From positions 3,136,001 to 3,200,000 of the forward strand of contig OZ242010.1 of assembly GCA_965204745.1 (NCBI GenBank): a stretch of 64,000 nt of DNA. Reading direction: 5' to 3'. Below, in pieces: positions 12,122-64,000 of the stretch. The notes beneath the pieces are model-generated. The model searched no databases and was not told the origin of the DNA. It worked only from the letters and a program-made list of their open reading frames with translations. A program made the position numbers and the translations under genes. Positions within the stretch are counted from its first letter, which is position 1, and each line of letters opens with the position of its first letter. Source of the stretch: Candidatus Latescibacterota bacterium (GTDB lineage: Bacteria > Latescibacterota > UBA2968).

Positions 12122-12590
12122 CTGACTACTGACTACTTGGACGGTGGCGGGGGGCTACCTCACCTCTCCCGTCTTGCCTCTCACCGAAGGGGGTTAGGCG
12201 GGATGGGAACTGACGACTGACGACTGACGACTGACGACTGACGACTGACGACTGACGACTGACGACTTGGACGGTGGCGGGGGGTTGCCTCACCTCTCCC
12301 ATCTTACGTCTCACTGAAGGGGGTTGGGCGGTGGCGGGGGGCTGCCTCCCTTCTCCCTTCTTGTCTCTTTGGGCGAGCACAGAGGCATCGCCCCTACAAA
12401 CACTTTTGTGTTTTTGTGCCTTTGAACTAGCTGTCGCCAGTTGTACCCCTTTTGTGCCTTTTGTGGCTAAAATCCCATCTTACGTCTCACTGAAGGGGGT
12501 TGGGCGGTGGCGGGGGGCTGCCTCCCTTCTCCCTTCTCACCTCTCCCGTCTTGCCTCTCACCTCTCCCGTCTCACCTCTCACCTTTTTCC
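12122..12590. repeat. Composite repeat block: (CTGACGA)8, CCTCTCA-type heptamers, GTAG-REP, CACAAAAGG nonamers
   Basis: Direct reading; perfect (CTGACGA)8 at 12210-12265. Confidence 0.85.
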
Positions 12591-15525: not shown

Positions 15526-16066
15526 CTAGGTCGTGTTGACATTCACCCGTGCGTGCCCAACCGCGCCACCGTGTCTGAATCGCGGATTAAACGGATTAGG
15601 GGATTGCGCGGATTACCCACCACCGCCCTACCGCAGACCTATCCCCCCGGCCCCCTTTCCTGCGAGGAAAGGGGGAGCGCATGGCTTTCTTAAAGGGTTG
15701 CATCCCTAGTTGCTTTGATGGCTTTGCGCGAATGGATCACGCCATGGAACCCCAAAAACCTATCGCGCAATCCCTCGGAAAACCGCTCACAGTTCCCCCT
15801 TCCTCGCAGGAAGGGGGTTAGGGGGTAGGTCCCCCTCGCTATCCCCCCGGCCCCCTTTCCTACGAGGAAAGGGGGAGCGCATGGCTTTTTGAAGGTTTGT
15901 ATCCCTGGCTGTTCTGATGGCTTTGCGCGAATGGATCACGCCATGAACCCCCAAAAACCGCTCGCCATTCCCCTCGGAAGACCCATCGCCATTCCCCCCT
16001 TCCTCGCAGGCACAGGCGTAGCCTACAACGAAGCGTAGCGAGTAACGGGGTTAGGGGGGTAGGTCC
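15526..16066. repeat. Composite block: family-B TIR, CGGATT nonamer repeat, two tandem family-A hairpin elements
   Basis: ACCTATCCCCCCGGCCCCCTTTCCT.CGAGGAAAGGGGG ... GGGGGTAGGTCC, also at 11817, 20842-21460, 34228, 49630. Confidence 0.85.
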
Positions 16067-19100: not shown

Positions 19101-20703
19101 CTCCGTAACCGGCGCCATAAGCAAAACCACCAGCGAGCTCCAGAGCCCCACTACCTACGGTGCCACCACCAACGACACCTACTACGGCTGGAACGTCAAC
19201 CTCGACGGACAAGCCGGCAACGACGATCCGTGGGCCTTTGGCGCGATGGATCAGTATCCGGTCTTGAAGTATGCCGGCTTTGACACCACCGCGCAATTTC
19301 AACTCCAACCCGCGAGAGTGACATTGACCCTGACGTCCTCGACGATCTCGGAAAGCGGTGGGATGAGCACCGTGACCGCGACGCTGGCACACCCGTTGAG
19401 CGCGGCGACGACGATCACGGTGCGTCCTGTGACCGGTGCTTACACGGTGGGGATGGATTCGACGATCACCATCGCGGCCGGGCAAACCGCGAACGCGTCG
19501 GATACAGTGATCATCACAGCGGTGGACAATACCCAAGACGCGCCTAATCGCAACGTGGACTTGTCCGTTGTGTTAGACAACCCCCAGGGCAGGGTGGTCA
19601 GCTCGACTGCGATAACGATCACCGATGATGACGCACCGCCGATGCTCTTGATCGATTCGCCGAGTGCGGTTGAGGGCACTGCCCTGACGTTCACCGTTAG
19701 ATTGAATGCGGTGAGCGGCAAGGAGGTGACGGTGGCGTATGCAGACGCGGGCACGGGCACCGCGACTTCGGGGACCGATTACACCGCGCTTACCGCAGGG
19801 ACCCTGACCTTTGCGGCGGGCACGACCATGACCAGCCAGACCTTCGATGTTACTGTGACCGGCGACTCGGATGATGAGCCGAACGAGACCGTGATCGTGA
19901 CTTTGAGCAACGCGGTCAATGCCACCTTTGATGGCGGGGCTACGAGCCTCACCGGCACCGGTACGATTATCGATGACGATGGCACGCCTGCGCTGAGTAT
20001 CGGTTCGCCAAGCGTGATTGAAGGCGCGACCAGCGCGACCCTGACCTTTCGGGTGTACCTACGCCCAGCGCACACGGCACAAGTGACGGTGGCGTATGCA
20101 GACGCGGGCACGGGCACCGCGACTTCGGGGACCGATTACACCGCGCTCACCGCAGGAACCCTGACCTTCACGGTAGGCGATACCATCCAGACCATCCCTG
20201 TTTCTGTGACCGACGACTCGGATGATGAGCCGAACGAGACCGTGATCGTGACGCTGAGCAGTGCGACCAATGCGACCATAAGCACGGCGCAAGGCACAGG
20301 GACGATTATCGATGACGAAACCTCGAGTGCCAACTTGGATGTGGATGGCGATGGCCGGGTGAGATTGTTCTCGGATATAATCCTGGTCATTCGATATGTC
20401 CTCTTCTTCCGGAACGAGGCCCTCCTCAGAGGGAACGTCATCGAGCAAACTGCCACGCGCACGACCGCTCAAGAAATTGAACCCTACCTCGACACGTTGG
20501 TCAATCAGAACATTCTCGATGTGGATGGCGATGGCGATGTGAGGCTGTTCTCGGATATAATCCTGATCATTCGATACGTCCTCTTCTTCCGGAACGAGGC
20601 CCTCGTCAGAGGGAACGTCATCGAGCAAACTGCTACGCGCATGACCGCTCAAGCCATTGAACCCTACATCCGAAGCCTCTATCCCGACTCCCACTTCCAA
20701 TGA
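16180..20703 (+). CDS. Giant secreted surface protein: 3 GLUG/beta-helix repeats, Ig-like unit, 2 Calx-beta, duplicated dockerin-like tail
   Basis: Signal peptide ending AFA-Q; repeated DYDTDxDGYIE, VGGLVG; TATSGTDY...DDEPNET; two LDVDGDG...RYVLFFR units. Confidence 0.88.
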   Translation: MITALFRSRLLALVALGMLVASGPAFAQTIIDYDTDDDGYIEVSGHAQLNAIRNDLDGDGNPTVGGSSAYNNAFPNRDGNAATRMGCPSGNCVGYELTANINLTTYTSWVRIGDNTNNYTGDFKGNGYTIDNLTISSSTTTYVGLFGAISSASRIESVGITNANVTGSEFVGALVGGSGGEIVACWSTGSVTARRVVGGLVGWTNGTITSSYSHASATGTQASTSDHVGGLLGASQSGTVRNSYSTGRVTRATGATTLNVGGLIGSGSANDAPGSYWDTQTSGWATSAGSQTAVGRTTTQLQSQTTYGATSSDAYYGWNIDLDNADGDSDTATGVDDPWDFAGSSAYPTLIYHLTDYDTDEDGYIEIANLAQLDAIRHNLGGNGHPASDGATAYGTAFPNRVTTASKVMGCPSGACTGYELVADLDFDSDGDGDVDANDHSGAYWDSGAGWTPIGVDNPPSSRFVTTLKGNGHTINNLLINRNSTNQGLFAAVGSGARIEALGITNASVTASDYVGILTANNYGEIVACYTTGTISATDFIGGLAGFMFGGASTFIHSSHSTASVTSTTSSTNVAGLVGRITTGSVTNSYSIGAVSSGGGGLIGSNNSGTATASYWDTTTSGRATSALGTGYATADLRGPTDYTAGSIYADWNANIDGQTGNDDPWYFGTSRQYPSLKYGGLDLSKQGAGDYDSDNDRLIEVSNLAQLNAVRHDRDGNGDPASGGAATYNAAFPNRDSRSGSRMGCPSSCTGYELIADLDFDSDGDGDVDINDHGGAYWNSGAGWTPIGDDTSESARYSAVFKGNGHTVNNLFIGGSNDDRGLFGSTHTTSRIETLGVTNANVRGDEYVAILVGSLYGTVVACYTTGAVIGTGTGALPNYGTAGGLVGWAGLSNTATVSSSYSTASVTGISRVGGLVGMGQNVTITNSYAIGRVTRTSGGGINVRGLVGWVQSGSVTTSYCDTETGGWSNCSGNSVTGAISKTTSELQSPTTYGATTNDTYYGWNVNLDGQAGNDDPWAFGAMDQYPVLKYAGFDTTAQFQLQPARVTLTLTSSTISESGGMSTVTATLAHPLSAATTITVRPVTGAYTVGMDSTITIAAGQTANASDTVIITAVDNTQDAPNRNVDLSVVLDNPQGRVVSSTAITITDDDAPPMLLIDSPSAVEGTALTFTVRLNAVSGKEVTVAYADAGTGTATSGTDYTALTAGTLTFAAGTTMTSQTFDVTVTGDSDDEPNETVIVTLSNAVNATFDGGATSLTGTGTIIDDDGTPALSIGSPSVIEGATSATLTFRVYLRPAHTAQVTVAYADAGTGTATSGTDYTALTAGTLTFTVGDTIQTIPVSVTDDSDDEPNETVIVTLSSATNATISTAQGTGTIIDDETSSANLDVDGDGRVRLFSDIILVIRYVLFFRNEALLRGNVIEQTATRTTAQEIEPYLDTLVNQNILDVDGDGDVRLFSDIILIIRYVLFFRNEALVRGNVIEQTATRMTAQAIEPYIRSLYPDSHFQ

Positions 20704-20841: not shown

Positions 20842-21600
20842 TACCTATCCCCCTAACCCCCCTTCCTGCAAGGAAGGGGGGAATGGCGAGAGGTTTTCCG
20901 AGGGATTGCGCGATGGGGGTTTGGGTTTCTATGGCGTGATCCATTCGCTCAAAGCCATCAAAACAGGCCTGGATGCAAACCTTTCAGAAAGCCATGCGCT
21001 CCCCCTTTCCTCGCAGGCACAGGCGTAGCCTACAATGAGCGAAGCGAATAACGGGGGCCGGGGGGATAGGGCTTGCGAGGTGGGACCTACCCCCTGGCCC
21101 CCTTCCTACGAGGAAGGGGGAATGGCGAGAGGAATGGCGAGGGATTGCGCGAGGGGGGTTTGGGTTTCTATGGCGTGATCCATTCGCTCAAAGCCATCAA
21201 AACAGCCAGGGATACAAACCTTCAAGAAAGCCATGCGCTCCCCCTTTCCTTGTAGGCACAGGCGTAGCCTACAATGAGCGAAGCGAATAACGGGGGCCGG
21301 GGGGATAGGTCGCATTTTCATGGCGCGATCCATTCGCGCAAAGCCATCAAAACAGCCAGGGATACAAACCTTTCAGAAAGCCATGCGCTCCCCCTTTCCT
21401 TGTAGGCACAGGCGTAGCCTACAATGAGCGAAGCGAATAACGGGGGCCGGGGGGATAGGGCTATGGCGGTAGGGCGGTGGGTGGCTCTCGCCTCTTACCT
21501 CTTGCCTCTTACTTGGGGACAGGGCTTGCGGCGGGGCGGTGGGTGGTAATCCGCGCAATCCCCTAATCCGTTTAATCCGCGATTCAGACACGGCGGGGTG
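20842..21600. repeat. Tandem family-A hairpin elements (inverted relative to 15637) plus CGGATT nonamers
   Basis: Three near-identical units, each carrying the 35-nt cassette. Confidence 0.85.
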
Positions 21601-33985: not shown

Positions 33986-34585
33986 GAAGGGAGACGGGAG
34001 AGGTGAGAGGCAAGAGGCAAGAGGTGAGAGGCAAGAGGGACGCCCAACGCCCAACCGTTCAAGCAATCAGTTGTCCGTTGTCCAACACCGCGCCGATAGC
34101 CTCTCCGCCCCACCTTGTCTGAATCGCGGATTAAACGGATTAGGGGATTGCGCGGATTACCCCCCACATCCCCTCCGCCGCTTCATCCTTCCCCCTCCGC
34201 AGTGTCCTTCGCACGCCCCACCGCAAAACCTATCCCCCCGGCCCCCTTTCCTACGAGGAAAGGGGGAGCGCATGACCGTTTGAAGGTTTGGCTCCCTGGC
34301 TGTTCTGATGGCTTTGAGCGAATGGATCACGCCATAGAAACCCAAAAACCTCTCGCCATTCCCCTCGCAAGACCTCTCGCCATTCCCCCCTTCCTCACAG
34401 GCACAGGCGTAGCCTACAACGAAGCGTAGCGAGTAACGGGGCTAGGGGGGTAGGTCCCAATAAACTGACCACTGACCACTTGGGCGGTGGCGGGGTTGCC
34501 TCACCTCTCCCGTCTTACGTCTCACTGAAGGGGGTTGGGCGAGGTGGGAACTGACCACTGACCACTGACCACTGACCACTGACCA
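33975..34585. repeat. Composite block: GAGGTGA/GAGGCAA heptamers, CGGATT nonamers, family-A element, (CTGACCA)5
   Basis: Direct reading; homologous to 15570-16066. Confidence 0.85.
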
Positions 34586-34589
34586 CTCC

Positions 34590-44441: not shown

Positions 44442-44729
44442 TGGATGCTCCTCCCTTAGAAATTGATCTGATATTGACCTATATACTTGGGCCTCTACTT
44501 CGGACAGACACAGGGGCCTGTCTCTACGATGAACCGCTATCGCAGTTGTCGTCTATTACTCGCTACGCTGCGTTGTAAGGCTACGCCTGTGCTTGCGCGC
44601 GTGTCGGAGTGGCGAATGGCGGTAGGGCGGAGGCGGGGACTGACAACTGACAACTGACCGCTGACAACTGCCTTCCCATCCGCGTTCTTATGTGGTCGCT
44701 TTTCGCTTTTGGGGCCGAACGCGGACTGC

Positions 44730-51442: not shown

Positions 51443-51491
51443 CTGACAACTGACAACTGACAACTGACAACTGACAACTGACTACTGACTA
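51443..51491. repeat. Heptamer tract (CTGACAA)5(CTGACTA)2 abutting the mraY stop
   Basis: Direct reading. Confidence 0.9.
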
Positions 51492-52550
51492 CTACCTAAT
51501 TTTTAACAACAACACCAACAAAATCGGCGTGACAACCGCCTGTAACAACGTGAACCTGACCAGCACTTGGGTATTTGACCAGCCCCACTTCTGGCGGACG
51601 TGGTCGTGCAGGGGATAGCGCACCTGCTTAAAAATGCCGATCTTGAAAAACCTCAGCAACGCGACTTTCAAAAGCCCTGTCGCGCCATTGACCAGCACCA
51701 CGCCTGCGACCACCACGATTAAAAGCGGATTGCCACACGCCAAGACCAGCATGCCGAGCAACAAGCCCAAGGGGCGCGACCCGGCATCGCCCATCAACAC
51801 CGCACTCGGATTGGCATTGTGCCACAAATAGCCCACCAAACACCCGGTCATGATAAAGGCCAACACGGCCCAATTCGCGGCCTCTGTGTAGTGCGGCACC
51901 AGCAAATACTGCGCGATGTCCCGATGTCCCACAATGCCGTACAGCGCGGTTCCCAAATACATAAATGCCAACGCGCACAAACTGCCGGACAAGCCATCCA
52001 CGCCATCTGTGCAATTCGTCGCGTTGATCGTCATCCACAACAAGAGCGTGGCAACGGGTATGTAAATCCACAGCGGGACGATCACCGGCGTCTTGATCAG
52101 CGGCAACCACACTTGGACAGGCCCCCATTGGCATACGACCAGCGCGCCTAAAATCGAAATGCCCAAATCGATCAGGCCCATGCGGTATTCGCCCCAGCCG
52201 CCGCGGCTGCGGTCGTCGAGAAACCCCACCAGCATCGCCAAAAACAAACAGCCCAATGCCTCGACATAGCGCGCGCTGACCGGGACGAACAAAAACCCGA
52301 CCACGATGGCGATAGAAACAAAAATGACCCCCGCGCCCACGGGCTTGCCCACACTTTGCGCGGCCCCAACCGCGTGAGCGCGCCCTCGGTCGTGCGGCAA
52401 TCTGTGCCACAACTTGGGCAACAGCCACCAGGTGATCGCGCAGGCGAGCGCGGCCCCTGCACTCACCAAAAACAAATAAGACGTGAACAGCCGAAACGGC
52501 CCATAGACATCCAAAAGTTGCTCACCAAGCCAGTAAAACACAGCAGACAC
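51492..52550 (-). CDS. mraY: MraY-like phospho-MurNAc-pentapeptide transferase (stand-alone variant)
   Basis: GFLDD, NATNCTDGVDGL, LMGDAGS, PLHDH, LLLKIR. Confidence 0.8.
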   Translation of the reverse strand: MSAVFYWLGEQLLDVYGPFRLFTSYLFLVSAGAALACAITWWLLPKLWHRLPHDRGRAHAVGAAQSVGKPVGAGVIFVSIAIVVGFLFVPVSARYVEALGCLFLAMLVGFLDDRSRGGWGEYRMGLIDLGISILGALVVCQWGPVQVWLPLIKTPVIVPLWIYIPVATLLLWMTINATNCTDGVDGLSGSLCALAFMYLGTALYGIVGHRDIAQYLLVPHYTEAANWAVLAFIMTGCLVGYLWHNANPSAVLMGDAGSRPLGLLLGMLVLACGNPLLIVVVAGVVLVNGATGLLKVALLRFFKIGIFKQVRYPLHDHVRQKWGWSNTQVLVRFTLLQAVVTPILLVLLLKIR

Positions 52551-53846: not shown

Positions 53847-55130
53847 TCAAGTCCGAAGGGCCGCGGGGTCGTTGATGCGGGCGTTTTGGGGTGCGGGTAC
53901 CCAGCCGGATAGGAGGGGGTCGTCGGTCGTTTCCATCCACGTTGCGAGGCGGCGACGCATGGCGTTTCGGTCGTGTTGATAGGCCGGATCCAGGGCGAGG
54001 TTGTGGGTCTCAAATGGGTCGAAAATCAAATCGTAGAGTTGCTCGCGGGGTTGGGTTTTCTGCCGCCATCCCCGTTCGAGAAAATAGGATTTGCTCGGGC
54101 TGCCATCGCAGTTGATGTCGCCCGGGCGCGCTGTGGGGTACCAGTGGCGGATGTATTTCCACTTCTTGGTGCGGACGGCCCGTTGCGGATCGTAATAGCT
54201 GTGGTAGTTGATTTCTGCAAAAATTTCTTCGTGGATCTCATCCGCTTCGCCGCGAACAAGGGGCAGGAGGGATTTGCCTTGCAACCAATCCGGATGGTCG
54301 ATGCCGATGAGGTCGCACAGCGTGGGGAACAGATCGACTTGGGAAACCATGCCGTCGATCACCTCGCCGCCCAAAAAACCCGGCCCGCGCATGATGAGCA
54401 AGACCCCGATGCCGTGATCCGTGAGGTTGCACTTCATCATCGGAAATGCAATGCCGTGGTCCGTGGTGCTGATGACGAGGGTGTTGTCCGCGAGCCCGGC
54501 CCGGTCGAGGGCGTTGAGCACGCGCCCGACTTCGGTGTCGAGGATTCGGACGCAGGTTTTGTAGGCCGCGGTGTCGTAGCGCGTTTCCGGCGTGTCCGGC
54601 AAGGGTGCAGGGGGCATGCAGTAGCGCGGGTCGTCTTCCGGTCCCGGTTCTGGAAAACTGCGATGCGTGAGCGTGTATCCCACGTCGAGGAAAAAGGGCT
54701 TGTCGTGCGCCCGATTGAGAAATGCAATGGCCGCGTCCGAGGTCGCCCGCTGATCTTTGGCCGTATCGAACATGTGGTCATAACCGATTTCGGCCGGGTC
54801 CGCCGATGGCGGACGCCCCACATGCTGAAACCCGGAAAGCGCGGTCGCGTACCCGGCCCGTTTCAGGGTTTGCACCAAGTGATGGCTGTAATCGTTGAGC
54901 CGAAACCCCCGGTGGGCAAGGCCGAGCATGCCGCAACAGTGGGGCCATTGCCCGGTCAAAAGCGCGGCGCGACTCGGAGAACACGTCGGGTTGGCGCAAA
55001 ACGCTTGCCGAAAGAGCACGCCCTGCTCGGCGAGGGCTTGGAAATTGGGCGTTGGCATGGCGTGTCCGTAAGGCTGGATATAGCGACCCGTGTCGTGCGA
55101 GTGGATGTAGAGGATATTGGGTTGGGACAT
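53847..55130 (-). CDS. Sulfatase
   Basis: QPNILYIHSHD, CSPSRAALLTG, TDHG, LYDLIFDP. Confidence 0.92.
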   Translation of the reverse strand: MSQPNILYIHSHDTGRYIQPYGHAMPTPNFQALAEQGVLFRQAFCANPTCSPSRAALLTGQWPHCCGMLGLAHRGFRLNDYSHHLVQTLKRAGYATALSGFQHVGRPPSADPAEIGYDHMFDTAKDQRATSDAAIAFLNRAHDKPFFLDVGYTLTHRSFPEPGPEDDPRYCMPPAPLPDTPETRYDTAAYKTCVRILDTEVGRVLNALDRAGLADNTLVISTTDHGIAFPMMKCNLTDHGIGVLLIMRGPGFLGGEVIDGMVSQVDLFPTLCDLIGIDHPDWLQGKSLLPLVRGEADEIHEEIFAEINYHSYYDPQRAVRTKKWKYIRHWYPTARPGDINCDGSPSKSYFLERGWRQKTQPREQLYDLIFDPFETHNLALDPAYQHDRNAMRRRLATWMETTDDPLLSGWVPAPQNARINDPAALRT

Positions 55131-55172
55131 GATGGGCTCCTTAAAGGAAGAGGCAAGATACTCTCTTAAAGG

Positions 55173-56180
55173 TCAAGGGGATTGCGGGGCGATTCGATAG
55201 AATTTCTCGCCCTCAAAATCTTGGTCATGCCGCAACATGCCCCAGATTGAATGGAGCAACTTTCGCATCACCGCAACGATAGCCTGCAAAGGTTTCTTGC
55301 CGCGGGCAATGAGTTGGTCATAGAAGGCTTTGACATGGACTTCGTGTCTGATGGCCACCCAGGCAGGCATATAGAGGGCATGGCGGAGGTACTTATTCCC
55401 GGTTTTCGAGATGCGTCTTTGTGGGTTGGCGGTTCCGGATTGTTTGGGTTTGGGATCCAGGCCTGCATGTGCGACCCACTGGGGCGGTTGCATCTCCTCA
55501 GGCAAAAGGGTCAACTCGGCCAAGAGCCGCAAGGCGCTCGTTTGTGCGATGCCAGGCGTCGAGCAGAGGCGTTGGTAGGCGCGCTTGAGGGTCTCATCGT
55601 GCAAAACGAGATCGAGGGCTTGGTCTTCCAAGTATGCAATCCGGCGTTTGAGGTGTCGAATATTCACCTGAATATCGCGTGCGATGCGCCGTGTGCTCAG
55701 GATGTGGTAGCTTTGCGCGTGGTTGCGGCTCTGTTCACTGATGATCACCTGCTTGAGTTGGTCAATGCGTCTGGTGAGGGCTTGCAGTTGAAGCCGTTGC
55801 TCACTCGGCGCTTGCCAAGGCACAAACGGCATGCGCTCGGCATAATCCATGATCAACAACGCATCCTTCGCATCCGTCTTGGCTCGTTGCATGCGGGCTT
55901 GACCGTACTTGCTCATCGCTTTGGGATTGACGACCATGACCTTTGTGTGGCGATGCCGATGCAAGGCCAAGGCCACCCCCAAGCTGTAAAGCCCGGTCGC
56001 TTCGAGGCACACAGAGACCATGTGCCCGCCCTTGGTGAGCCACTTCAGCAACCGCTTATGGGCTTGGGGATCATTGGCAAAGGTCGCTTGCATGACAGCT
56101 TGTCCGGGTCTGGACAGGGCAACAGACAACGTGCGGGCACTGACATCAATGCCGGCGAAAGCGGGTTGAGATTTCGACAT
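55173..56180 (-). CDS. IS110 recombinase/transposase (RuvC-like DEDD plus Tnp domain)
   Basis: GIDVS, CLEATG, KTDAKDA; PKQSG catalytic Ser; ISKTGNKYLRHALY. Confidence 0.95.
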   Translation of the reverse strand: MSKSQPAFAGIDVSARTLSVALSRPGQAVMQATFANDPQAHKRLLKWLTKGGHMVSVCLEATGLYSLGVALALHRHRHTKVMVVNPKAMSKYGQARMQRAKTDAKDALLIMDYAERMPFVPWQAPSEQRLQLQALTRRIDQLKQVIISEQSRNHAQSYHILSTRRIARDIQVNIRHLKRRIAYLEDQALDLVLHDETLKRAYQRLCSTPGIAQTSALRLLAELTLLPEEMQPPQWVAHAGLDPKPKQSGTANPQRRISKTGNKYLRHALYMPAWVAIRHEVHVKAFYDQLIARGKKPLQAIVAVMRKLLHSIWGMLRHDQDFEGEKFYRIAPQSP

Positions 56181-56244
56181 GGGGGCCTCCTGTGATGAGG
56201 GGTTGTAAGGGGTCTGGTGTGCGCTCGAGTTCGATCCCGACCAT

Positions 56245-56428
56245 TGACGCCAAGTCTACCGGTCTTGTATATGCAGCCTCAAGGGACTTAGATACTCTTC
56301 GGCATAGACCCGGCGGTCGGGGGGCCTATCTTACCTACAAGGTCATCGCCTTCAAGAGGGGCCGGCCTTCCCCGAGCCGGGCATCAAGATGGCTTATCTC
56401 GATACGAGGGCGCAACTCCTAATTAACC
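56245..56428 (-). ncRNA. Predicted bridge RNA of the IS110 element (ends approximate)
   Basis: 5' hairpin 56383-56403; target loop guides GGCCCCUCU (56355-63) and AGGUAAG (56330-36); donor loop guides AGAGUAUCU (56290-98) and AUACAAG (56264-70). Confidence 0.8.
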
Positions 56429-56447
56429 CTTACTTCCAAGATACAAG

Positions 56448-56680
56448 AGGGGAGACGGGAGAGGGGAGAGGTAAGAAGTGAGAGGTGAGAAGTGAGAGGT
56501 GAGAAGTGAGATGGGATTTTAGCCACGAGCGGGGTACAACTGGCGACAGCCAGTTCAAAGGCACAAAAGGCACAAAAGGCACAAAAGGCACGAGCAGGTA
56601 AAACTGGCGATAGCCAGTTCAAAGGCACAAAAAGTGAGCGATATGTGTAGGGGCGATGCCTCTGTGCTCGCCCGAAGATA
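56448..56680. repeat. Heptamer (GAGGTGA/GAAGTGA) and nonamer (CACAAAAGG) tracts, two ~30-nt cassettes, GTAG-REP
   Basis: Direct reading; REP GTAGGGGCGATGCCTCTGTGCTCGCCC also at 24912 and 12370 (minus). Confidence 0.85.
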
Positions 56681-56730
56681 CAATAAAGGTGAAAGAACAT
56701 CTCCTCTCTCCGTTGCGGGGCCAGGGATTT

Positions 56731-58143: not shown

Positions 58144-58579
58144 AAAAAAACTTATGACGCAAACGCGGCGTTGTCAAGGGAAAGGGAAGACGTGAGATGG
58201 GAGAGGGGAGAAGCAAGAGGGGAGAGGCAAGAGGGGAGAAGGCCACCGCGCTGTTCCTCAAGTTGTCAGTTGTCAATGCGAATTAAGAGTAGAAAGCGAG
58301 TAAGAAGCAAGCCGCGGTCAATCATCCAAAGACCTGAACGAGTCATCCATTATAGAATCCCCCTTGAACTTGTCTTAAAACGAACGATGGATGCCCCTCC
58401 TCCGGCTCTTTCCCGCAACGGAGAGATGTTATTCCCCCTTGTATCTTCCTCGTAGGCACAGGCGTAGCCTACAACGAAGCGTAGCGAGTAACGGGGCTAG
58501 TGGGTAGGTTCCAATTCCAAAAAGTAAAGCCCGAGTTCCCTGTGAACCCGGGCTTTTGTTTTTTCGCGTCTTTCGTCGT

Positions 58580-58780: not shown

Positions 58781-61700
58781 TGGAAGTGGGAGTCGGGATA
58801 GAGGCTTCGGATGTAGGGTTCAATGGCTTGAGCGGTCGTGCGCGTGGCAGTTGGCTCGATGACGTTCCCTCTGACGAGGGCCTCGTTCCGGAAGAAGAGG
58901 ACATATCGAATGATCAGGATTATATCAGAGAACAGTCTCACATCGCCATCGCCATCCACATCGAGAATGTTCTGATTGACCAACGTGTCGAGGTAGGGTT
59001 CAATTTCTTGAGCGGTCTTGCGCGTGGCAGTTGGCTCGATGACGTTCCCTCTGAGGAGGGCCTCGTTCCGGAAGAAGAGGACATATCGAATGACCAGGAT
59101 TATATCCGAGAACAATCTCACCCGGCCATCGCCATCCACATCCAAGTTGGCACTCGGGGTTTCGTCATCGGTCAGGGTCAGGGTTACGGGCGAAGGACCG
59201 GTGATGCCTTGGGCGTTGTTTGCGGTTGCAGACACGCTGACCGTCTTCTCGTCCGCCCGGTCGTCGTTGTCCATGGCGGTGATCGTCACGGTGCCTGTGC
59301 TCGTTGTGGTCGTCGCCGCGATGATCAGCGTGTCTGCACTCGATAGCGTGAAGTCGCTCGCAGTCGCAGGGGACACAGGCGTAGCAGAGACCGTGATCGT
59401 CGTGATCGCGCTCGATGGGTGCGATAGGGTCGCCGTGATCGTGGAAACCTCGCCGTTTTCCGAAATCGACGAGGGTGTGAGCACCAACGTCACGGTCGGT
59501 GCTTCGTCATCGTCGGTCGTCGTCACCGGAACGTCCTCGTCCGAAAGGTCGTTGTAGTTGGTATCGCCGCTTGACAGGGCGAGTCGCACCGCCCAGGTGA
59601 CGTCCCCGTCGTCGATGATGTCGTCTTGCCCGGTCACGGTCACGGTTTGTGCCGTGTTATAGCCTGACGTCGTGAAGGTCAGCATCGCAGGCTCAACCCG
59701 CCCCTCGCTCGGGTCTTGGCTCGTCACCGAAATCGTCACCGCCGCCGTGGGTTGCGTCAGCAGGGCCACCGTGAAGGTCGCCGAGCCACCGGCCTCTGTC
59801 GCCTGCCCGGTCACCGCGCTGATGTCCAAGCCGAAATCGTTATCGCGGTTGACCATGTACACGATGATCGCGGAGAGCGCGTCGTAGTTGGTGTCCTGCG
59901 TATCCGTCTGGTTCACCGAAAGGGTGACCGTATAGTTCTGGTTGCCATCGACGGCGGCGGGAGTATCGTCCTGCCCGGTCACGGTCACGGTTTGCGCCGT
60001 GCTCCATGTTGTCGATGAGAAGGTCAGCACCGAGGGCGATACAGTGCCTTCCGTCGTGTCTGAACTGACCACCGAGAGTGCCACGTTCCCCGTCGGCTCG
60101 GAGGCGAGCGTGACCGTGAAGGTCTCTGCCCTGCCCGACTCTGTCGTGTGGAGCCTGACCGTCGTCGTGGTCATCGCCGACACCTCAATCGCCGCCTCGT
60201 CGTCATCGGTGATCGTCAGCGACGTAGCCTGCACGGTGCCCGCGCCGTGGTCGTTCTCCACAGCGGCGGTCTGCACCATCACCGCGTTGTCTGATGCGTC
60301 TATGTCGTTGTCCACGGCGGTGAGTGCCACCGTGTCCGACGCGTTCGCCGTGCTCCCAGCCGCGATGGTGATCGTCGAATCCGACCCCACTGTGTAGGCA
60401 TTCGCCACCGGGCGCACCGTGATCGTTGTCGCCGCGCTCGATGGGTGTGTCAGCGTCGCCGTCACCGTGCTCACGCCGCCGGCCTCCGAGATGGACGCGG
60501 GCGACAGCATTAGTGTCACGTCCGGCGCGGCGTCATCGTCTGTGATCGTCAAAGCCGTGCCGGTCACACTGCCTGCGCCTTGGTCATTGCTCACCGGAAC
60601 AGACACGGTCACGTCGCGATTAGGCGCGTCTTGGGTGTTGTTCACCGCTGTAATGACCACGGTATCCGTCGCGTTCGCCGTACTCCCTGCCGCGATGGTG
60701 ATCGTCGAATCCGACCCCACCGTGTAAGCACCCGCCACCGGGCGCACCGTGATTGTCGTGATCGCGCTCGACCGATGCGACAGCGTCGCCGTGATCGTCG
60801 AAACACCGCCGGTCTCTGCAATCGACGCGGGCGACAGCGTCAGTGCCACATCCGGCGCGGCCTCATCGTCTGTGATCGTCAGGATCACGGCAGACGATAG
60901 CGACGCCCCATTGCCACCTGCCACCGTTGCAGACACGGTCACGCGCTTGTCCGGCGCATCGGTCGTGTCGTTCACCGAGGTGATCGTCACGGCGCCCGTG
61001 CTCGTCGTCACATTCGCCGCGAAGGTCAGCGTGGTCGCGGTCGATAGCGTAAAATCGCCCGCAACCGCAGGGGCCACCGGGGTCGCTGAAACCGTGACCG
61101 TCGTCGCCACGGTTGCAACGCGATCTAGCGTCGCCGTGATCGTGGAAATCTGGGCATTCTCCGTAATTGACGCAGGAGTCAAAACCAACGTCACCTGCGC
61201 CACTTCGTCATCGATAATCGTCAGCGTCGCATCAGTGACCGATCCCGTGCCTATGCTGTTGCCCGCCGTGCTCGACACGGTCACCGTCTTGTTCCCCGAA
61301 GATATGCTGTTGTCCACCGTCCTGATCGTCACGGTGCCCGTGCTCATCGTTTGCCCCGCCGCGACGGTCAGCGTGGCCGGCGTACTCAGCATGTAGTCGC
61401 CCGGAACCGCAGGCGACACAGCCGACGCTGAAACCGTGATCGTCGTCGTCGCGCTCGACGTGTGAGACAGGGTCGCAGTCACGGTCGAGACGCCGCCGTT
61501 CTCTGAAATCGACGCAGGCGATAAAACCATCGTCACGTCCGGCGCAACGTCGTCGTCCGTCAGCGTCAAAGCCGCACCGGTCACACTGCCCACGCCTTGG
61601 CTGTTGTGCGCCACACCGGACACGGTCACGTCGCGATTAGGCGCGTCTTGGGGATTGTTCACCGCTGTGATGACCACAGTGTCCGACGCGTTAATCGTGT

Positions 61701-64000
61701 CCCCGGCCGCGATGGTGATCGTCGTATCCGCCCCCACCGTGTAAGCACCCGCCACAGGACGCACCGTGATCGTCGTCGCCGTGCTCGATGGACGCGATAG
61801 CGACGCCGTGACCGTCGAAACCGCGCCGTTCTCCGAAATCGACGCCGGTGACGCCGCCAACGTCGCTGTCGGTGCAGGGTCGTCGTCGTCCAGCGTCAAA
61901 GTCGCCTCGGTCACACTGCCCACGCCTTGGGCGTTGTCTGCCACAACGGACATGTCCACGTCGCGATTAGGCGCGTCTTGGGTATTGTCCACCGCTGTGA
62001 TGACCACCGTATCCGTCGCGTTCGCCGTGCTCCCGGCTGCAATGGTGATCGTCGAATCCGCTGCCACCGTGTAAGCCCCCGCCACCGGGCGCACCGTGAT
62101 CGTCGTTGCCGCGCTCAACGGGTGTGCCAGCGTCGCGGTCACGGTGCTCATCCCGCCGCTTTCCGAGATCGACGAGGGCGTCAGTGCCAACGTCACTCTC
62201 GCGGGTTGGAACTGAAATTGCACGGTGGTATCCATGCCGGCATACTTCAAGGCCGGATACTGATCCATCGTGCCAAAGGTCCACGGATCGTCGTTGCCGG
62301 GTTGTCCGTCGAGGTTGGCGTTCCAGCCGTAGTAGGTGTCGTTGGTGGTGGCGCCGTAGGTGGTGGGGCTCTGGAGCTCGCTGGCGGTCTTGCCGACAAC
62401 GCCGCTACCGCCGGCACTGGTGGTCTGACCGCTGGTGGAGGTGTCCCAGTGGCTATCGGTCACTGTGCCAGACGAACTGCCCACCAAACCGCCTTTCGTG
62501 CCGGTACCCGTGACTGCGCCTATCGCGTAGCTGGCGGTCACGCTACCGCCGCTCGCGAGTGAACCCACCAACCCGCCGCCCACCGCGCTGCTGTGTCCAG
62601 CGAACACAGAGCCCAGCGCGTAAGACGCCACCACCTCGGTCTGATCGGTCAGCCAACCCACCAACCCGCCAGCCAGCCCGTCACTCGTCACAGACGCAGG
62701 AACCCGCACAGAGACGAGCGCGTAGCTGCTCACAATGCGGTTGCTGCCCGAAGTGCGATAAGACCGACCGACCAAACCACCCACACCCCACCGCGACCCC
62801 GAAACGCGACCCGTCACATAACACGACGAGATGGTGCCACCACCACCTTGATTACCGGCCAGACCACCCACGCGGTCAGCACCGGTCACATTCACATTCA
62901 ACAACCCCAATCCCGAAACATCGCCATCAACTGCATGGAACAATCCTGTATTATGCCGAGACCCCCGGTCGATGAACAAGTGGGAGATCGTCTTGTTGTT
63001 GCCTTTGAACGTGCCGCCGTAAGGCCCCACAGGGTCCCAGCCGGCACCGCCATTCCAGTAGGTGGTGTCTGCTTGGGTGATCGCGCCGTCGTTGTTCTCG
63101 TCAAAGTCCAAGTTGTTGAGCAGTTCGTAGCCGATGCAACCTGTGGAAGGACACCCCTTGCTCGCTGACAAGTTCCCGTTGGGAAAGGCGGCGTTGTAGG
63201 TCATGGCATCACTATCGGCGACGACCCCATCGCCATTGAGATCCCAGCGCATGGCATGCAGTTGGGCCAAGGTCGAGACCTCGAGGAGGCCATCGCTATC
63301 CGTGTCGTAATGCACGGGTTGGGTAGCGAACTGCGCCGTGGTGTCCAGGCCGGCAAACTTCAAGGCCGGATACTGATTCGTCGTGCCAAAGGTCCAGGGA
63401 TCATCATCGTTGGCCCCCGAAGCATCTATGGTCAGATCGTCCCAGTTGGCATAGATGCCGCTCGCAGACGTGACCGATTGTAAGTCGGAGGTCAACTTGC
63501 CCTCCGGCGCAACAGTATCGCTATCATCGGCAATGTCGCTTGTTTGCGTGTCCCAGTAGCTATCGGTCACTGTACCTGAGTTTTCCGCCAGCCCATGCTT
63601 GTGCAGGCAGGCCCCCGTTACTGAGCCTGTTGAGTAGCTCGACGCTATCGTCGCACCGGCACCATTGGCACCCACCAACCCGCCGCCAGTGGCCCACGGC
63701 CCCGACTGATTGCACACCACAGACGCCATGGCGTAACTCGCCACGATGTACGACCCCCTCTGAGTGGCGCCCGCCAACCCGCCGACATTGGTGTTCGCCG
63801 TGACCGACCCCGTGACGTAACTCGCCGCGATCCGACCCTTGTTCAGACCCACCAGCGCGCCCACCGTGCCCTGACCCGTATTGATCACCGCGTTGACCAA
63901 CCCCAAAGAGCGGATGTGGGCAGTGGTGTCCGTGCTTGCGAAAAATCCCGAAAAGTTGACGTAGCGGTTGATGTACAGGTGGGAGATCCTCTTGCCGTTG
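58777..64000 (-). CDS. Giant surface protein (5' end beyond window): GLUG repeats, long Thr-rich Ig-like stalk, duplicated dockerin-like tail
   Basis: Frame open to the window edge; repeated LSPASISE.GG.STVTATL...LTITDDD units; tail near-identical to 16180-20703. Confidence 0.88.
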   Translation of the reverse strand, partial: NGKRISHLYINRYVNFSGFFASTDTTAHIRSLGLVNAVINTGQGTVGALVGLNKGRIAASYVTGSVTANTNVGGLAGATQRGSYIVASYAMASVVCNQSGPWATGGGLVGANGAGATIASSYSTGSVTGACLHKHGLAENSGTVTDSYWDTQTSDIADDSDTVAPEGKLTSDLQSVTSASGIYANWDDLTIDASGANDDDPWTFGTTNQYPALKFAGLDTTAQFATQPVHYDTDSDGLLEVSTLAQLHAMRWDLNGDGVVADSDAMTYNAAFPNGNLSASKGCPSTGCIGYELLNNLDFDENNDGAITQADTTYWNGGAGWDPVGPYGGTFKGNNKTISHLFIDRGSRHNTGLFHAVDGDVSGLGLLNVNVTGADRVGGLAGNQGGGGTISSCYVTGRVSGSRWGVGGLVGRSYRTSGSNRIVSSYALVSVRVPASVTSDGLAGGLVGWLTDQTEVVASYALGSVFAGHSSAVGGGLVGSLASGGSVTASYAIGAVTGTGTKGGLVGSSSGTVTDSHWDTSTSGQTTSAGGSGVVGKTASELQSPTTYGATTNDTYYGWNANLDGQPGNDDPWTFGTMDQYPALKYAGMDTTVQFQFQPARVTLALTPSSISESGGMSTVTATLAHPLSAATTITVRPVAGAYTVAADSTITIAAGSTANATDTVVITAVDNTQDAPNRDVDMSVVADNAQGVGSVTEATLTLDDDDPAPTATLAASPASISENGAVSTVTASLSRPSSTATTITVRPVAGAYTVGADTTITIAAGDTINASDTVVITAVNNPQDAPNRDVTVSGVAHNSQGVGSVTGAALTLTDDDVAPDVTMVLSPASISENGGVSTVTATLSHTSSATTTITVSASAVSPAVPGDYMLSTPATLTVAAGQTMSTGTVTIRTVDNSISSGNKTVTVSSTAGNSIGTGSVTDATLTIIDDEVAQVTLVLTPASITENAQISTITATLDRVATVATTVTVSATPVAPAVAGDFTLSTATTLTFAANVTTSTGAVTITSVNDTTDAPDKRVTVSATVAGGNGASLSSAVILTITDDEAAPDVALTLSPASIAETGGVSTITATLSHRSSAITTITVRPVAGAYTVGSDSTITIAAGSTANATDTVVITAVNNTQDAPNRDVTVSVPVSNDQGAGSVTGTALTITDDDAAPDVTLMLSPASISEAGGVSTVTATLTHPSSAATTITVRPVANAYTVGSDSTITIAAGSTANASDTVALTAVDNDIDASDNAVMVQTAAVENDHGAGTVQATSLTITDDDEAAIEVSAMTTTTVRLHTTESGRAETFTVTLASEPTGNVALSVVSSDTTEGTVSPSVLTFSSTTWSTAQTVTVTGQDDTPAAVDGNQNYTVTLSVNQTDTQDTNYDALSAIIVYMVNRDNDFGLDISAVTGQATEAGGSATFTVALLTQPTAAVTISVTSQDPSEGRVEPAMLTFTTSGYNTAQTVTVTGQDDIIDDGDVTWAVRLALSSGDTNYNDLSDEDVPVTTTDDDEAPTVTLVLTPSSISENGEVSTITATLSHPSSAITTITVSATPVSPATASDFTLSSADTLIIAATTTTSTGTVTITAMDNDDRADEKTVSVSATANNAQGITGPSPVTLTLTDDETPSANLDVDGDGRVRLFSDIILVIRYVLFFRNEALLRGNVIEPTATRKTAQEIEPYLDTLVNQNILDVDGDGDVRLFSDIILIIRYVLFFRNEALVRGNVIEPTATRTTAQAIEPYIRSLYPDSHFQ

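Follow-up and report, generated by a model that had tools for sequence, protein, structure and literature searches.

Insertion sequences of the IS110 group have a long left end and a short right end, and bridge RNAs have been predicted in 85.7% of them (Durrant et al. 2024; PMC11208160/PMC11208158). The element described here occupies 1292 bp on the minus strand (positions 55156-56447, counting one CT core per junction) of a 64,000-nucleotide (nt) stretch of contig OZ242010.1 from a Candidatus Latescibacterota bacterium, a stretch referred to below as the window. For IS621 of Escherichia coli, the 2024 papers describe a 177-nt RNA, a promoter whose halves meet only at the circle junction, and a core that takes part in all four pairings (PMC11208160/PMC11208158). 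Each loop of that RNA pairs on its 5' side with a bottom strand and on its 3' side with a top strand, and handshake bases beside the right guides pair with position 7 of the other DNA (PMC11208160/PMC11208158). Repetitive extragenic palindromic (REP) elements are named there as typical IS110 targets, and some IS110 orthologues are reported to encode naturally longer right target guides (PMC11208160/PMC11208158). ISPpu9 and ISPpu10 of Pseudomonas putida are described as multi-copy IS110 elements that insert into repeated intergenic host sequence, namely REP-type palindromes, with 7 copies of ISPpu9. Elements of the IS1111 group, of the same family and also RNA-guided, are described as carrying their RNA in a long right end and as having long subterminal inverted repeats. 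Ten genomic copies are treated as a high number in one preprint (10.1101/2025.10.25.684509).

The window element shares with IS621 a DEDD and Tnp recombinase with the same five catalytic residues, the same CT core, and a non-coding RNA in the left end (here predicted) whose first loop would read the target and whose second would read the donor. Its sequence also offers candidate handshake positions and the two halves of a putative promoter that circle formation would join. The IS621 donor positions named in the paper's text (A6, T7, C8, T9, T10 and T12) agree with the donor of the window element; the donor string that the original prediction ascribed to IS621 has 0 occurrences in the texts of the papers. 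The two differ in the left guide, effectively 5+2 nt here against the 8-9 nt given in the paper for IS621; in the right guide, a contiguous 5+2 nt here against the 4-bp pairing given for IS621; in the target, two units of a tandem heptamer here against REP elements; and in copy number, with 52 copies here in one genome. Tandem heptamers also distinguish the element from ISPpu9 and ISPpu10, and membership in the IS1111 group is ruled out by its 15-nt right end and the predicted RNA in its left end. The literature searches turned up no paper on IS110 elements aimed at tandem heptamers; this element or tandem-repeat targets may already be among the orthologues and targets tabulated by Durrant et al. 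We hold with high confidence that this is an active or very recently active IS110-group insertion sequence with a bridge RNA encoded in its left end, like IS621. The original prediction, made from the letters of the window alone, had called it a new natural bridge recombinase. Its catalytic residues are those of IS621, and each sequence-level prediction of the putative bridge-RNA reading was tested and held, but the kind was already known and the element is a further member of it. The companion claim of natural 7-nt right guides stands for the guide itself, which is contiguous over 7 nt, but not as a novelty, since naturally longer right guides were already published. The features of the locus are as follows.

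55156-56447, minus strand: whole IS110-group element; exact ends common to 52 full-length copies in the genome.
56446-56447, minus strand: left-junction core CT; CT starts 52/52 copies.
55156-55157, minus strand: right-junction core CT; CT closes 52/52 copies.
55173-56180, minus strand: recombinase gene, 335 amino acids (aa); DEDD RuvC-like and Tnp domains (Pfam), matches in the PDB.
56181-56445, minus strand: non-coding left end, encoding the predicted bridge RNA, the start of which is placed from the -10 position.
56438-56443, minus strand: TATCTT, -10 half of a putative circle-junction promoter, read from the sequence.
55171-55176, minus strand: TTGACC, -35 half of the putative circle-junction promoter, overlapping the recombinase stop codon.
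56381-56405, minus strand: predicted 5' stem-loop of 9-10 bp, from the fold and found in copies of the host genome.
56318-56374, minus strand: predicted target-binding stem-loop with base stem, internal loop and distal 4-bp stem; helices 1 and 2 paired in 98-100%, with compensatory changes.
56355-56361, minus strand: left target guide CCCCUCU (5 nt plus core), of the same sense as the left flank.
56330-56336, minus strand: right target guide AGGUAAG, complementary to CT plus TACCT, with an rU:dG wobble against TGCCT of the window copy.
56328-56329, minus strand: AU, the two bases that follow the right target guide on its 3' side, a handshake-guide position able to pair with donor positions 7-6 (T, A).
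56249-56314, minus strand: predicted donor-binding stem-loop with long base stem, internal loop and distal 4-bp stem (helices 3 and 4); compensatory changes in 12/17 pairs.
56290-56298, minus strand: left donor guide AGAGUAUCU, whose DNA form AGAGTATCT equals the last 9 nt of the element (55156-55164).
56264-56270, minus strand: right donor guide AUACAAG (DNA ATACAAG), reverse complement of CTTGTAT in the left end.
56448-56516, minus strand: heptamer array of 9 in-register units, the last being CTCCCCT, which supplies the left target half; from sequence and repeat analysis.
55151-55155, minus strand: right target half TGCCT, from sequence.
58225-58238, minus strand: empty exact 14-nt target CTCCCCTCTTGCCT within another heptamer array, 0 mismatches.

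The recombinase has both domains of the family at scores above the curated Pfam cut-offs (PF01548, 4.6e-23, 82.2 bits; PF02371, 6.6e-20, 71.7 bits). Among solved structures it matches only the transposases of ISCro4 (9t56, E 7.9e-41) and, more distantly, IS621 (8wt6, phmmer E 1.9e-36). ISCro4, the best-scoring solved relative (residues 7-332), shares the motifs GIDVS, EAT, KTDAxDA and SG; it is represented here by the title of its PDB entry and a protein alignment, and the comparison is of proteins only. Residues D12, E60, D103, D106 and S248-G249 align with D11, E60, D102, D105 and S241-G242 of IS621 (chain indices of 8wt6 run 2 above the native numbering). In the 2024 papers D11, E60, D102, D105 and S241 with G242 are given as essential (PMC11208160/PMC11208158). 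Among annotated relatives on plasmids, the closest comes from Salinibacter ruber (an 'IS110 family transposase', 50.8% identity).

Between its CT cores the element comprises a 265-nt non-coding left end, a 335-aa open reading frame, and a 15-nt right end. The cores and both junctions lie where the original prediction had set them. On the minus strand, and with hyphens setting off the core, the left junction reads ...GTCTCCCCT-CT-TGTATCTTGG (core at 56447-56446) and the right junction ...AAGAGAGTAT-CT-TGCCTCTTCC (core at 55157-55156). The left end holds GGCCCCTCT, in which the left target guide's core part, CCCCTCT (56355-56361), is directly preceded by GG. The donor loop is likewise present where claimed, with AGAGUAUCU matching the right end at 9/9 positions and AUACAAG matching CTTGTAT at 7/7, and AGGUAAG fits the TGCCT flank with one G-U among its pairs, as had been read.

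The predicted bridge RNA probably starts near 56431 and extends past 56249. At the putative circle junction TTGACC ends 15 nt before the element end and TATCTT begins at base 5 of the left end, giving a 17-nt spacer as counted from the sequence. TTGA stands at an equal distance from the element end in every relative, as judged by eye, and a scan of the integrated left end found no sigma-70-like promoter. In a mechanism modelled by homology on IS621, including transcription, the RNA ends, circle formation and catalysis, excision would produce a circle in which TTGACC of the right end and TATCTT of the left end are brought 17 nt apart. The promoter reconstituted in this way would transcribe an RNA of roughly 200 nt, the second internal loop of which (AGAGUAUCU / AUACAAG) would pair with the joined element ends, and the DEDD/Ser recombinase would exchange strands at the CT core. 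Co-oriented with the element is a sulfatase gene (53847-55130; PF00884, 5.9e-35), whose start codon lies 25 bp downstream of the element's right end across the spacer 55131-55155; read-through from the element could affect this gene.

The host, a sponge-associated bacterium, is represented by a metagenome-assembled chromosome, a single contig of 5.48 Mb with a G+C content of 56.5%. Searching it with the element (blastn) returned 77 segments, 52 of them full length and about 20 truncated fragments. By identity to the window copy, the full copies divide into subfamily A (8 copies, 100%), subfamily B with a few variants (39 copies, 96-97%) and subfamily C (5 copies, 88-89%). They represent 15 distinct sequences, one common to 30 copies and another to 8, and the 335-aa frame is intact in 51/52 copies. 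All 52 copies start and end with CT and all have different flanks. As the original prediction anticipated, these copies use the same type of site. The 7-nt left flank is CTCCCCT in 34 copies, CTTACCT in 5, TTCCCCT in 4, CTCGCCT in 3, CTTCCCT and CACCCCT in 2 each, and ATCCCCT and CTCACCT in 1 each; the 5-nt right flank is TACCT in 25, TGCCT in 17, TACTT in 5, CACCT and CCCGT in 2 each, and TGCCC in 1.

When heptamer arrays are defined as at least 3 units of CT[CT][ACG][CG][CGT]T, the host genome contains 605 CT-phased arrays with 3376 units and 23,632 bp, or 0.43% of the genome. At least 3 in-register units run across both flanks in 47/52 copies, and at least 2 units in 50/52, which bears out the claim that 7-bp repeats serve as a multi-copy target. 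Because the copies are in register with the arrays, the target corresponds to two adjacent heptamer units, with the CT core as the first two bases of the right-hand unit. Since two units of a degenerate array suffice, the genome provides many landing sites, and the arrays could act as a 'safe harbour' for the element. Perfect 12-nt sites (CCCCTCTTACCT) are occupied in 20 cases and empty in 5 (80% occupied), compared with 17 occupied and 65 empty (21% occupied) for wobble sites (CCCCTCTTGCCT); the expectation for such 12-mers from base composition is 0.77. Two of the empty perfect sites lie seven bases apart in one array, and one is 14 nt from an existing copy. Within the window the 14-nt target has 15 sites at no more than 2 mismatches against 0.23 expected, a number attained in 0/100 shuffles; the empty exact target and the near-targets (34008-34042 and 21487-21507) noted at the outset are among the features recovered. 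At G000:C1:1121591-1124182 two full copies, one B and one A, stand head to tail with only TACCT between them, and the A copy took the right flank of the B copy as its left target.

Guides and flanks vary together within the host genome. Alignment of left ends and extraction of guides from the full copies gave four target-guide classes. The largest, CCCCUCU/AGGUAAG, has 45 copies, 20 of which are at CCCCT-CT-TACCT (a perfect match) and 17 at CCCCT-CT-TGCCT (one rU:dG wobble; the window copy is included here). CGCCUCU/AAGUAAG is found in 4 copies, at CGCCT or CACCT followed by CT and TACTT or TACCT, UGCCUCU/AAGUAAG in 2 copies, and UCCCUCU/AGGUGAG in a single copy at TCCCT-CT-CACCT, which it matches at 10/10 positions. 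Three of the four guide variants in full copies suit their own flanks (CCCCT-CT-TACCT, CGCCT-CT-TACTT and TCCCT-CT-CACCT). Counted by strict Watson-Crick pairing over the 52 copies, left and right mismatches number 0 and 0 in 23 copies, 0 and 1 in 19, 2 and 0 in 4, 0 and 3 in 2, 1 and 0 in 2, 0 and 2 in 1, and 1 and 2 in 1. Forty-two of the 52 copies were counted at no more than one non-Watson-Crick position in 10, including the 23 perfect ones and 17 with only the TGCCT rU:dG wobble. The left target guide had been predicted to match at 7/9 positions, and this is so; the unmatched bases are GG, the two 5'-most of the nine-base left guide, which match the flank in 0/52 copies. Since GG never matches, the left guide is effectively reduced to 5 nt and the core, and the target to 12 nt.

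Remnants preserve two further target-loop specificities, which with the four of the full copies brings the number readable in the host genome to six. In a single-copy, transposase-less mini-element of 192 bp (G000:C1:2972659-2972850), bases 1-185 of the left end run directly into the final 7 nt of the right end. Both bridge-RNA loops are retained, the right guide is ACGGGAG, a fit to CT-CCCGT, and the flanks are CTCCCCT-CT and CT-CCCTT; ACGGGAG is also the right guide of a fragment at genome position 845540. The mini-element's predicted RNA, acting in trans, could explain the two insertions of full copies at CCCGT. Older fragments (87-89% identity) have the guides UUCCCC-CU and CAGGAAG and are sited at ...TTCCCC-CT. 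The 10-mer CCCCCTTCCT, the core of a palindromic repeat in the long tandem repeats of the window, occurs 479 times in the genome; the palindrome resembles a REP-like repeat and looks like the target of these decayed fragments. Given the guides and sites of the fragments and the abundance of CCCCCTTCCT, an earlier subfamily seems to have been aimed at a REP-like repeat, as lineage X (below) may be. Tandem copies of a 150-239-nt element with the palindrome CCCCCTTCCT...AGGAAGGGGG are found in the window at 15639-16010 and 20858-21459.

A scan across species-representative genomes gave 29 loci. Relatives include X on the closed Latescibacterota chromosome OY282377.1 (G016; 79-83% protein identity), Y on the closed Latescibacterota chromosome OZ251458.1 (G018; 76-77%), L055 on a third Latescibacterota contig (59%), the gammaproteobacterial locus L057 (51%), and the Gemmatimonadota locus L058 (48%). 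In X the guides UCC(U/C)CCU and AGAAAAG accompany the site ...CC-CT-TTTCT, which has no heptamer array, and in Y the guides CUCGCCUCU and AGGGAG accompany CT(C/T)(G/A)CCT-CT-CCCGT within heptamer arrays. The left guide of L055 (AAAUAGUCU) matches its left flank at 9/9 positions and the right guide has one mismatch, while L057 and L058 have (C)CGUUAG beside CT-AACG(G). Guide-flank matching thus holds in five other lineages, and the expectation that guides covary with flanks is borne out both there and among the subfamilies of the host genome. Across 79 elements in 10 guide classes, cognate guides and flanks agree at a mean of 8.95 of 10 non-core positions compared with 6.11 for non-cognate combinations, and the cognate guide is best or co-best in 8/10 classes. 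Taken over the 79 elements, paired target-loop positions average 9.09 of 10. The two exceptions are the main class, which is tied by a wobble-rich alternative, and the class holding a mosaic copy considered below. Of 30 further genomes from the genus and order, three contain the recombinase clade (E <= 1e-40), with 8 matches in G016, 18 in G018 and 3 in G030 (54% identity), compared with 57 in the host.

The structure of the predicted bridge RNA was examined with an alignment of 19 left ends from 7 lineages, for which RNAalifold gave two stem-loops with internal loops. The tested structure has 30 pairs in 4 helices with the guides unpaired; a pairing of left-guide with right-guide parts (columns 93-96 with 112-115) and two donor-guide positions proposed by RNAalifold were excluded as probable self-complementarity of the guides. 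Cells are paired in 96.1% of this structure compared with 30-52% when partners are slid by 1-3 columns. Compensatory changes on both sides occur in 15/30 pairs, and 0/500 shuffles attain any of five measures; the aligned left ends are kin, so that the shuffle count is not a probability, and the slid control and the number of compensatory pairs bear the argument. A GACC/GGUC outer extension of the donor stem was dropped because its register shifts in L055 and L057. No match to the left-end DNA was found in E. coli genomes (blastn, distant mode), so that a direct alignment to the IS621 RNA is not possible.

Positions corresponding to the IS621 handshake agree with this arrangement. The AU after the right target guide is invariant in 19/19 aligned sequences and suits T7 and A6 of the donor. 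The right donor guide is followed by A opposite a T at target position 7 in the host genome and L055, G opposite C in X and L057, and G opposite T in Y, which amounts to 4 Watson-Crick pairs and 1 wobble in 5 lineages on the evidence of sequence. The donor loop matches the element ends in each lineage aligned, and in L057 a C stands at donor position 5 in both the right end and the guide. At loci L032 and L036 of genome X, the right end AGAGTTTCT replaces AGAGTATCT while the left donor guide is still AGAGUAUCU; copies with such a donor-end mismatch may be immobile. The distant relatives L057 and L058 have CC at the end of the left donor guide but CT at the element end (GAGCAUCC / GAGUAUCC), so that the last core position would not pair.

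Related strains bear on the mobility of the element. DNA datasets holding the locus come from sponge and marine metagenomes and coded organisms, and the strain comparison rests on assembled contigs. Contigs from DNA runs of two different studies (X4 and X5) join window position 55158 to 56685 with 37 other letters between them. On the minus strand they read ...CTTACC-T-CT-TGCCT, that is, the empty site CTTACCT-CT-TGCCT, with its right boundary exactly where the element is predicted to end. On the left of this empty site the array differs from that of the window. These contigs indicate that the element is absent at the locus in related strains and that the arrays vary between strains.

Several observations weigh against the reading of the element as a recently mobile, bridge-RNA-guided insertion sequence. 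Ten of the 52 copies suit their own guides poorly: 4 B copies at TACCT-CT-TACCT with 2 left mismatches, 2 copies at CCCCT-CT-CCCGT with 3 right mismatches, three further copies with 1 to 2 mismatches each, and a mosaic copy (L019; genome positions 602780-604074) whose guides predict TGCCT-CT-TACTT and whose actual site is TCCCT-CT-CACCT (1+2 mismatches). The site type of the mosaic copy is matched at 10/10 positions by guides from elsewhere, those of the single variant copy at genome position 1297034. Over its first 100 nt the mosaic copy is closer to subfamily C (6-7 differences) than to A or B (12), and the remainder most resembles A and that variant copy (0-6 differences per 100 nt). The folding claim of the original prediction stands in part: the two stem-loops with internal loops are recovered by comparative analysis, but a single-sequence fold of the whole left end is no better than shuffles (z = -0.96), and the 5' stem-loop of 9-10 bp, present in copies of the host genome, is not recovered in lineage Y. 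A search of the left end against Rfam 15 gave no match above gathering thresholds, the best three being at chance level (E 2.2-7.3). Finally, identical copies in a metagenome-assembled chromosome could partly reflect consensus polishing.

This last point also bears on the possibility that the family is now inert, its copies being fossils or having multiplied by duplication, gene conversion or assembly artefact. Metagenome assembly could homogenize repeats, about 20 truncated fragments are present, and no RNA run with the locus was found among the sequencing runs searched. We nevertheless consider inertness improbable, because 52 copies with different flanks are not segmental duplications, frames are intact in 51/52, the locus lacks the element in the contigs of two other studies, and depth over the element is far above that of its flanks in all four runs (depth here is not a copy number). 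Still less probable, to the point that we give it very little credence, is that the guide-like matches are coincidental and that the site is chosen by the protein alone or by the structure of array DNA. The arrays are of low complexity and rich in pyrimidines, which makes chance short matches to a C/T-rich loop easier, and several are in an inverted arrangement that could form hairpins. Against coincidence, guide and flank change jointly at the same positions in three subfamilies of the host genome, the match extends to targets that are not heptamers (TTTCT/AGAAAAG in X, AAATAGT at 9/9 in L055, and AACG(G)/(C)CGUUAG in L057 and L058), and the donor loop matches the element ends in all lineages.

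A further proposal, which would add to RNA-guided insertion rather than replace it, is that the element itself expands or maintains the CT-phased arrays, for example through strand exchange by the recombinase and bridge RNA between misaligned units. Out-of-register exchange between sister chromosomes would then grow, shrink and diversify the arrays. Each array unit starts with the CT core and one unit is equivalent to the 7-nt left target, and the array adjoining the window copy differs in related strains. According to a preprint, a match to half of the bridge RNA is enough for recombination (10.64898/2026.08.31.748434). Three-unit CTYRCCT runs number 625 in the host and 270 in G018 compared with 0-4 in the other 29 genomes, including 0 in G016, whose elements have another target; the targeted heptamers thus abound only in the two genomes with elements directed at them. 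As a control, three units of the unrelated heptamer ACTGACN were counted in the same way in the host and in 30 relatives, with 1204 matches in the host, 1 in G018, and 0-62 in the remaining relatives. G018 thus nearly lacks the control heptamer, which speaks for the proposal. The 1204 matches in the host, which have no link to the element, speak against it, as they imply that this host expands heptamers generally and that heptamer repeats as such are not tied to the element. Support moreover comes from only two genomes that are kin to each other, no recombination product between array units was observed, and the co-occurrence is equally explained by retargeting of the element to whichever repeat abounds. 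Two related genomes are too few to choose between retargeting to an abundant repeat and spreading of arrays by the element, and we regard array-making as unlikely. If it were true, guide point mutations, loop swaps between co-resident subfamilies and trans-acting mini-elements would spread the family across unit variants, and an RNA-guided recombinase and a microsatellite would form a self-reinforcing cycle.

The arrays are set among other repeats. A second, unrelated heptamer family (ACTGACN / CTGACAA) is represented in the window at 12209-12267, 34550-34587, 44639-44670 and 51443-51493, and its arrays are frequent neighbours of the CT-phased ones, with GGTGGCC-type motifs and 9-mers also nearby. 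The heptamer array next to the element is adjoined by a 9-nt tandem repeat, AAAGGCACA (x3.9, 100% matches; window 56557-56591), and the same repeat (CCTTTTGTG) recurs next to other arrays in the genome. Many of the arrays sampled are preceded by the same heptamers read on the other strand, in the order purine-rich units, GGCCACC or GGTGGTC, and pyrimidine-rich units. Such inverted arrays (for example, at genome positions 3442487, 3596891 and 66766) could fold into long imperfect hairpins. Long tandem repeats with periods of 180 nt (two places, 92-93% matches) and 330 nt (78-79%) occur in the window at 20338-20667, 58813-59142 and 60327-62196, and may represent repeated protein domains.

As the mechanism is already known, the value of this family is as natural history and as a resource. 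The points of moderate interest are the 52 copies, the diversification of guides, the mini-element that retains only a bridge RNA, and the co-occurrence with CT-phased arrays. For engineering it adds an orthologue remote from both IS621 and ISCro4, whose right guide spans 7 contiguous nt and whose effective target is 12 nt long. Within a single closed genome, several target-loop specificities go back to one ancestor, and most are found at matching sites; together they document in nature the reprogramming of bridge-RNA guides through single substitutions where a degenerate repeat serves as the target. The sites also record natural mismatch tolerance, with 80% of perfect sites and 21% of sites with one rU:dG wobble occupied and ten copies at poor matches; the wobble and half-matched sites are in line with recombination at half matches as described in the preprint (10.64898/2026.08.31.748434). 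The mosaic copy and the 192-bp transposase-less element suggest that bridge RNAs may act in trans in nature, and the abundance of the arrays only where the element aims at them raises the question of recombinase-driven repeat dynamics.

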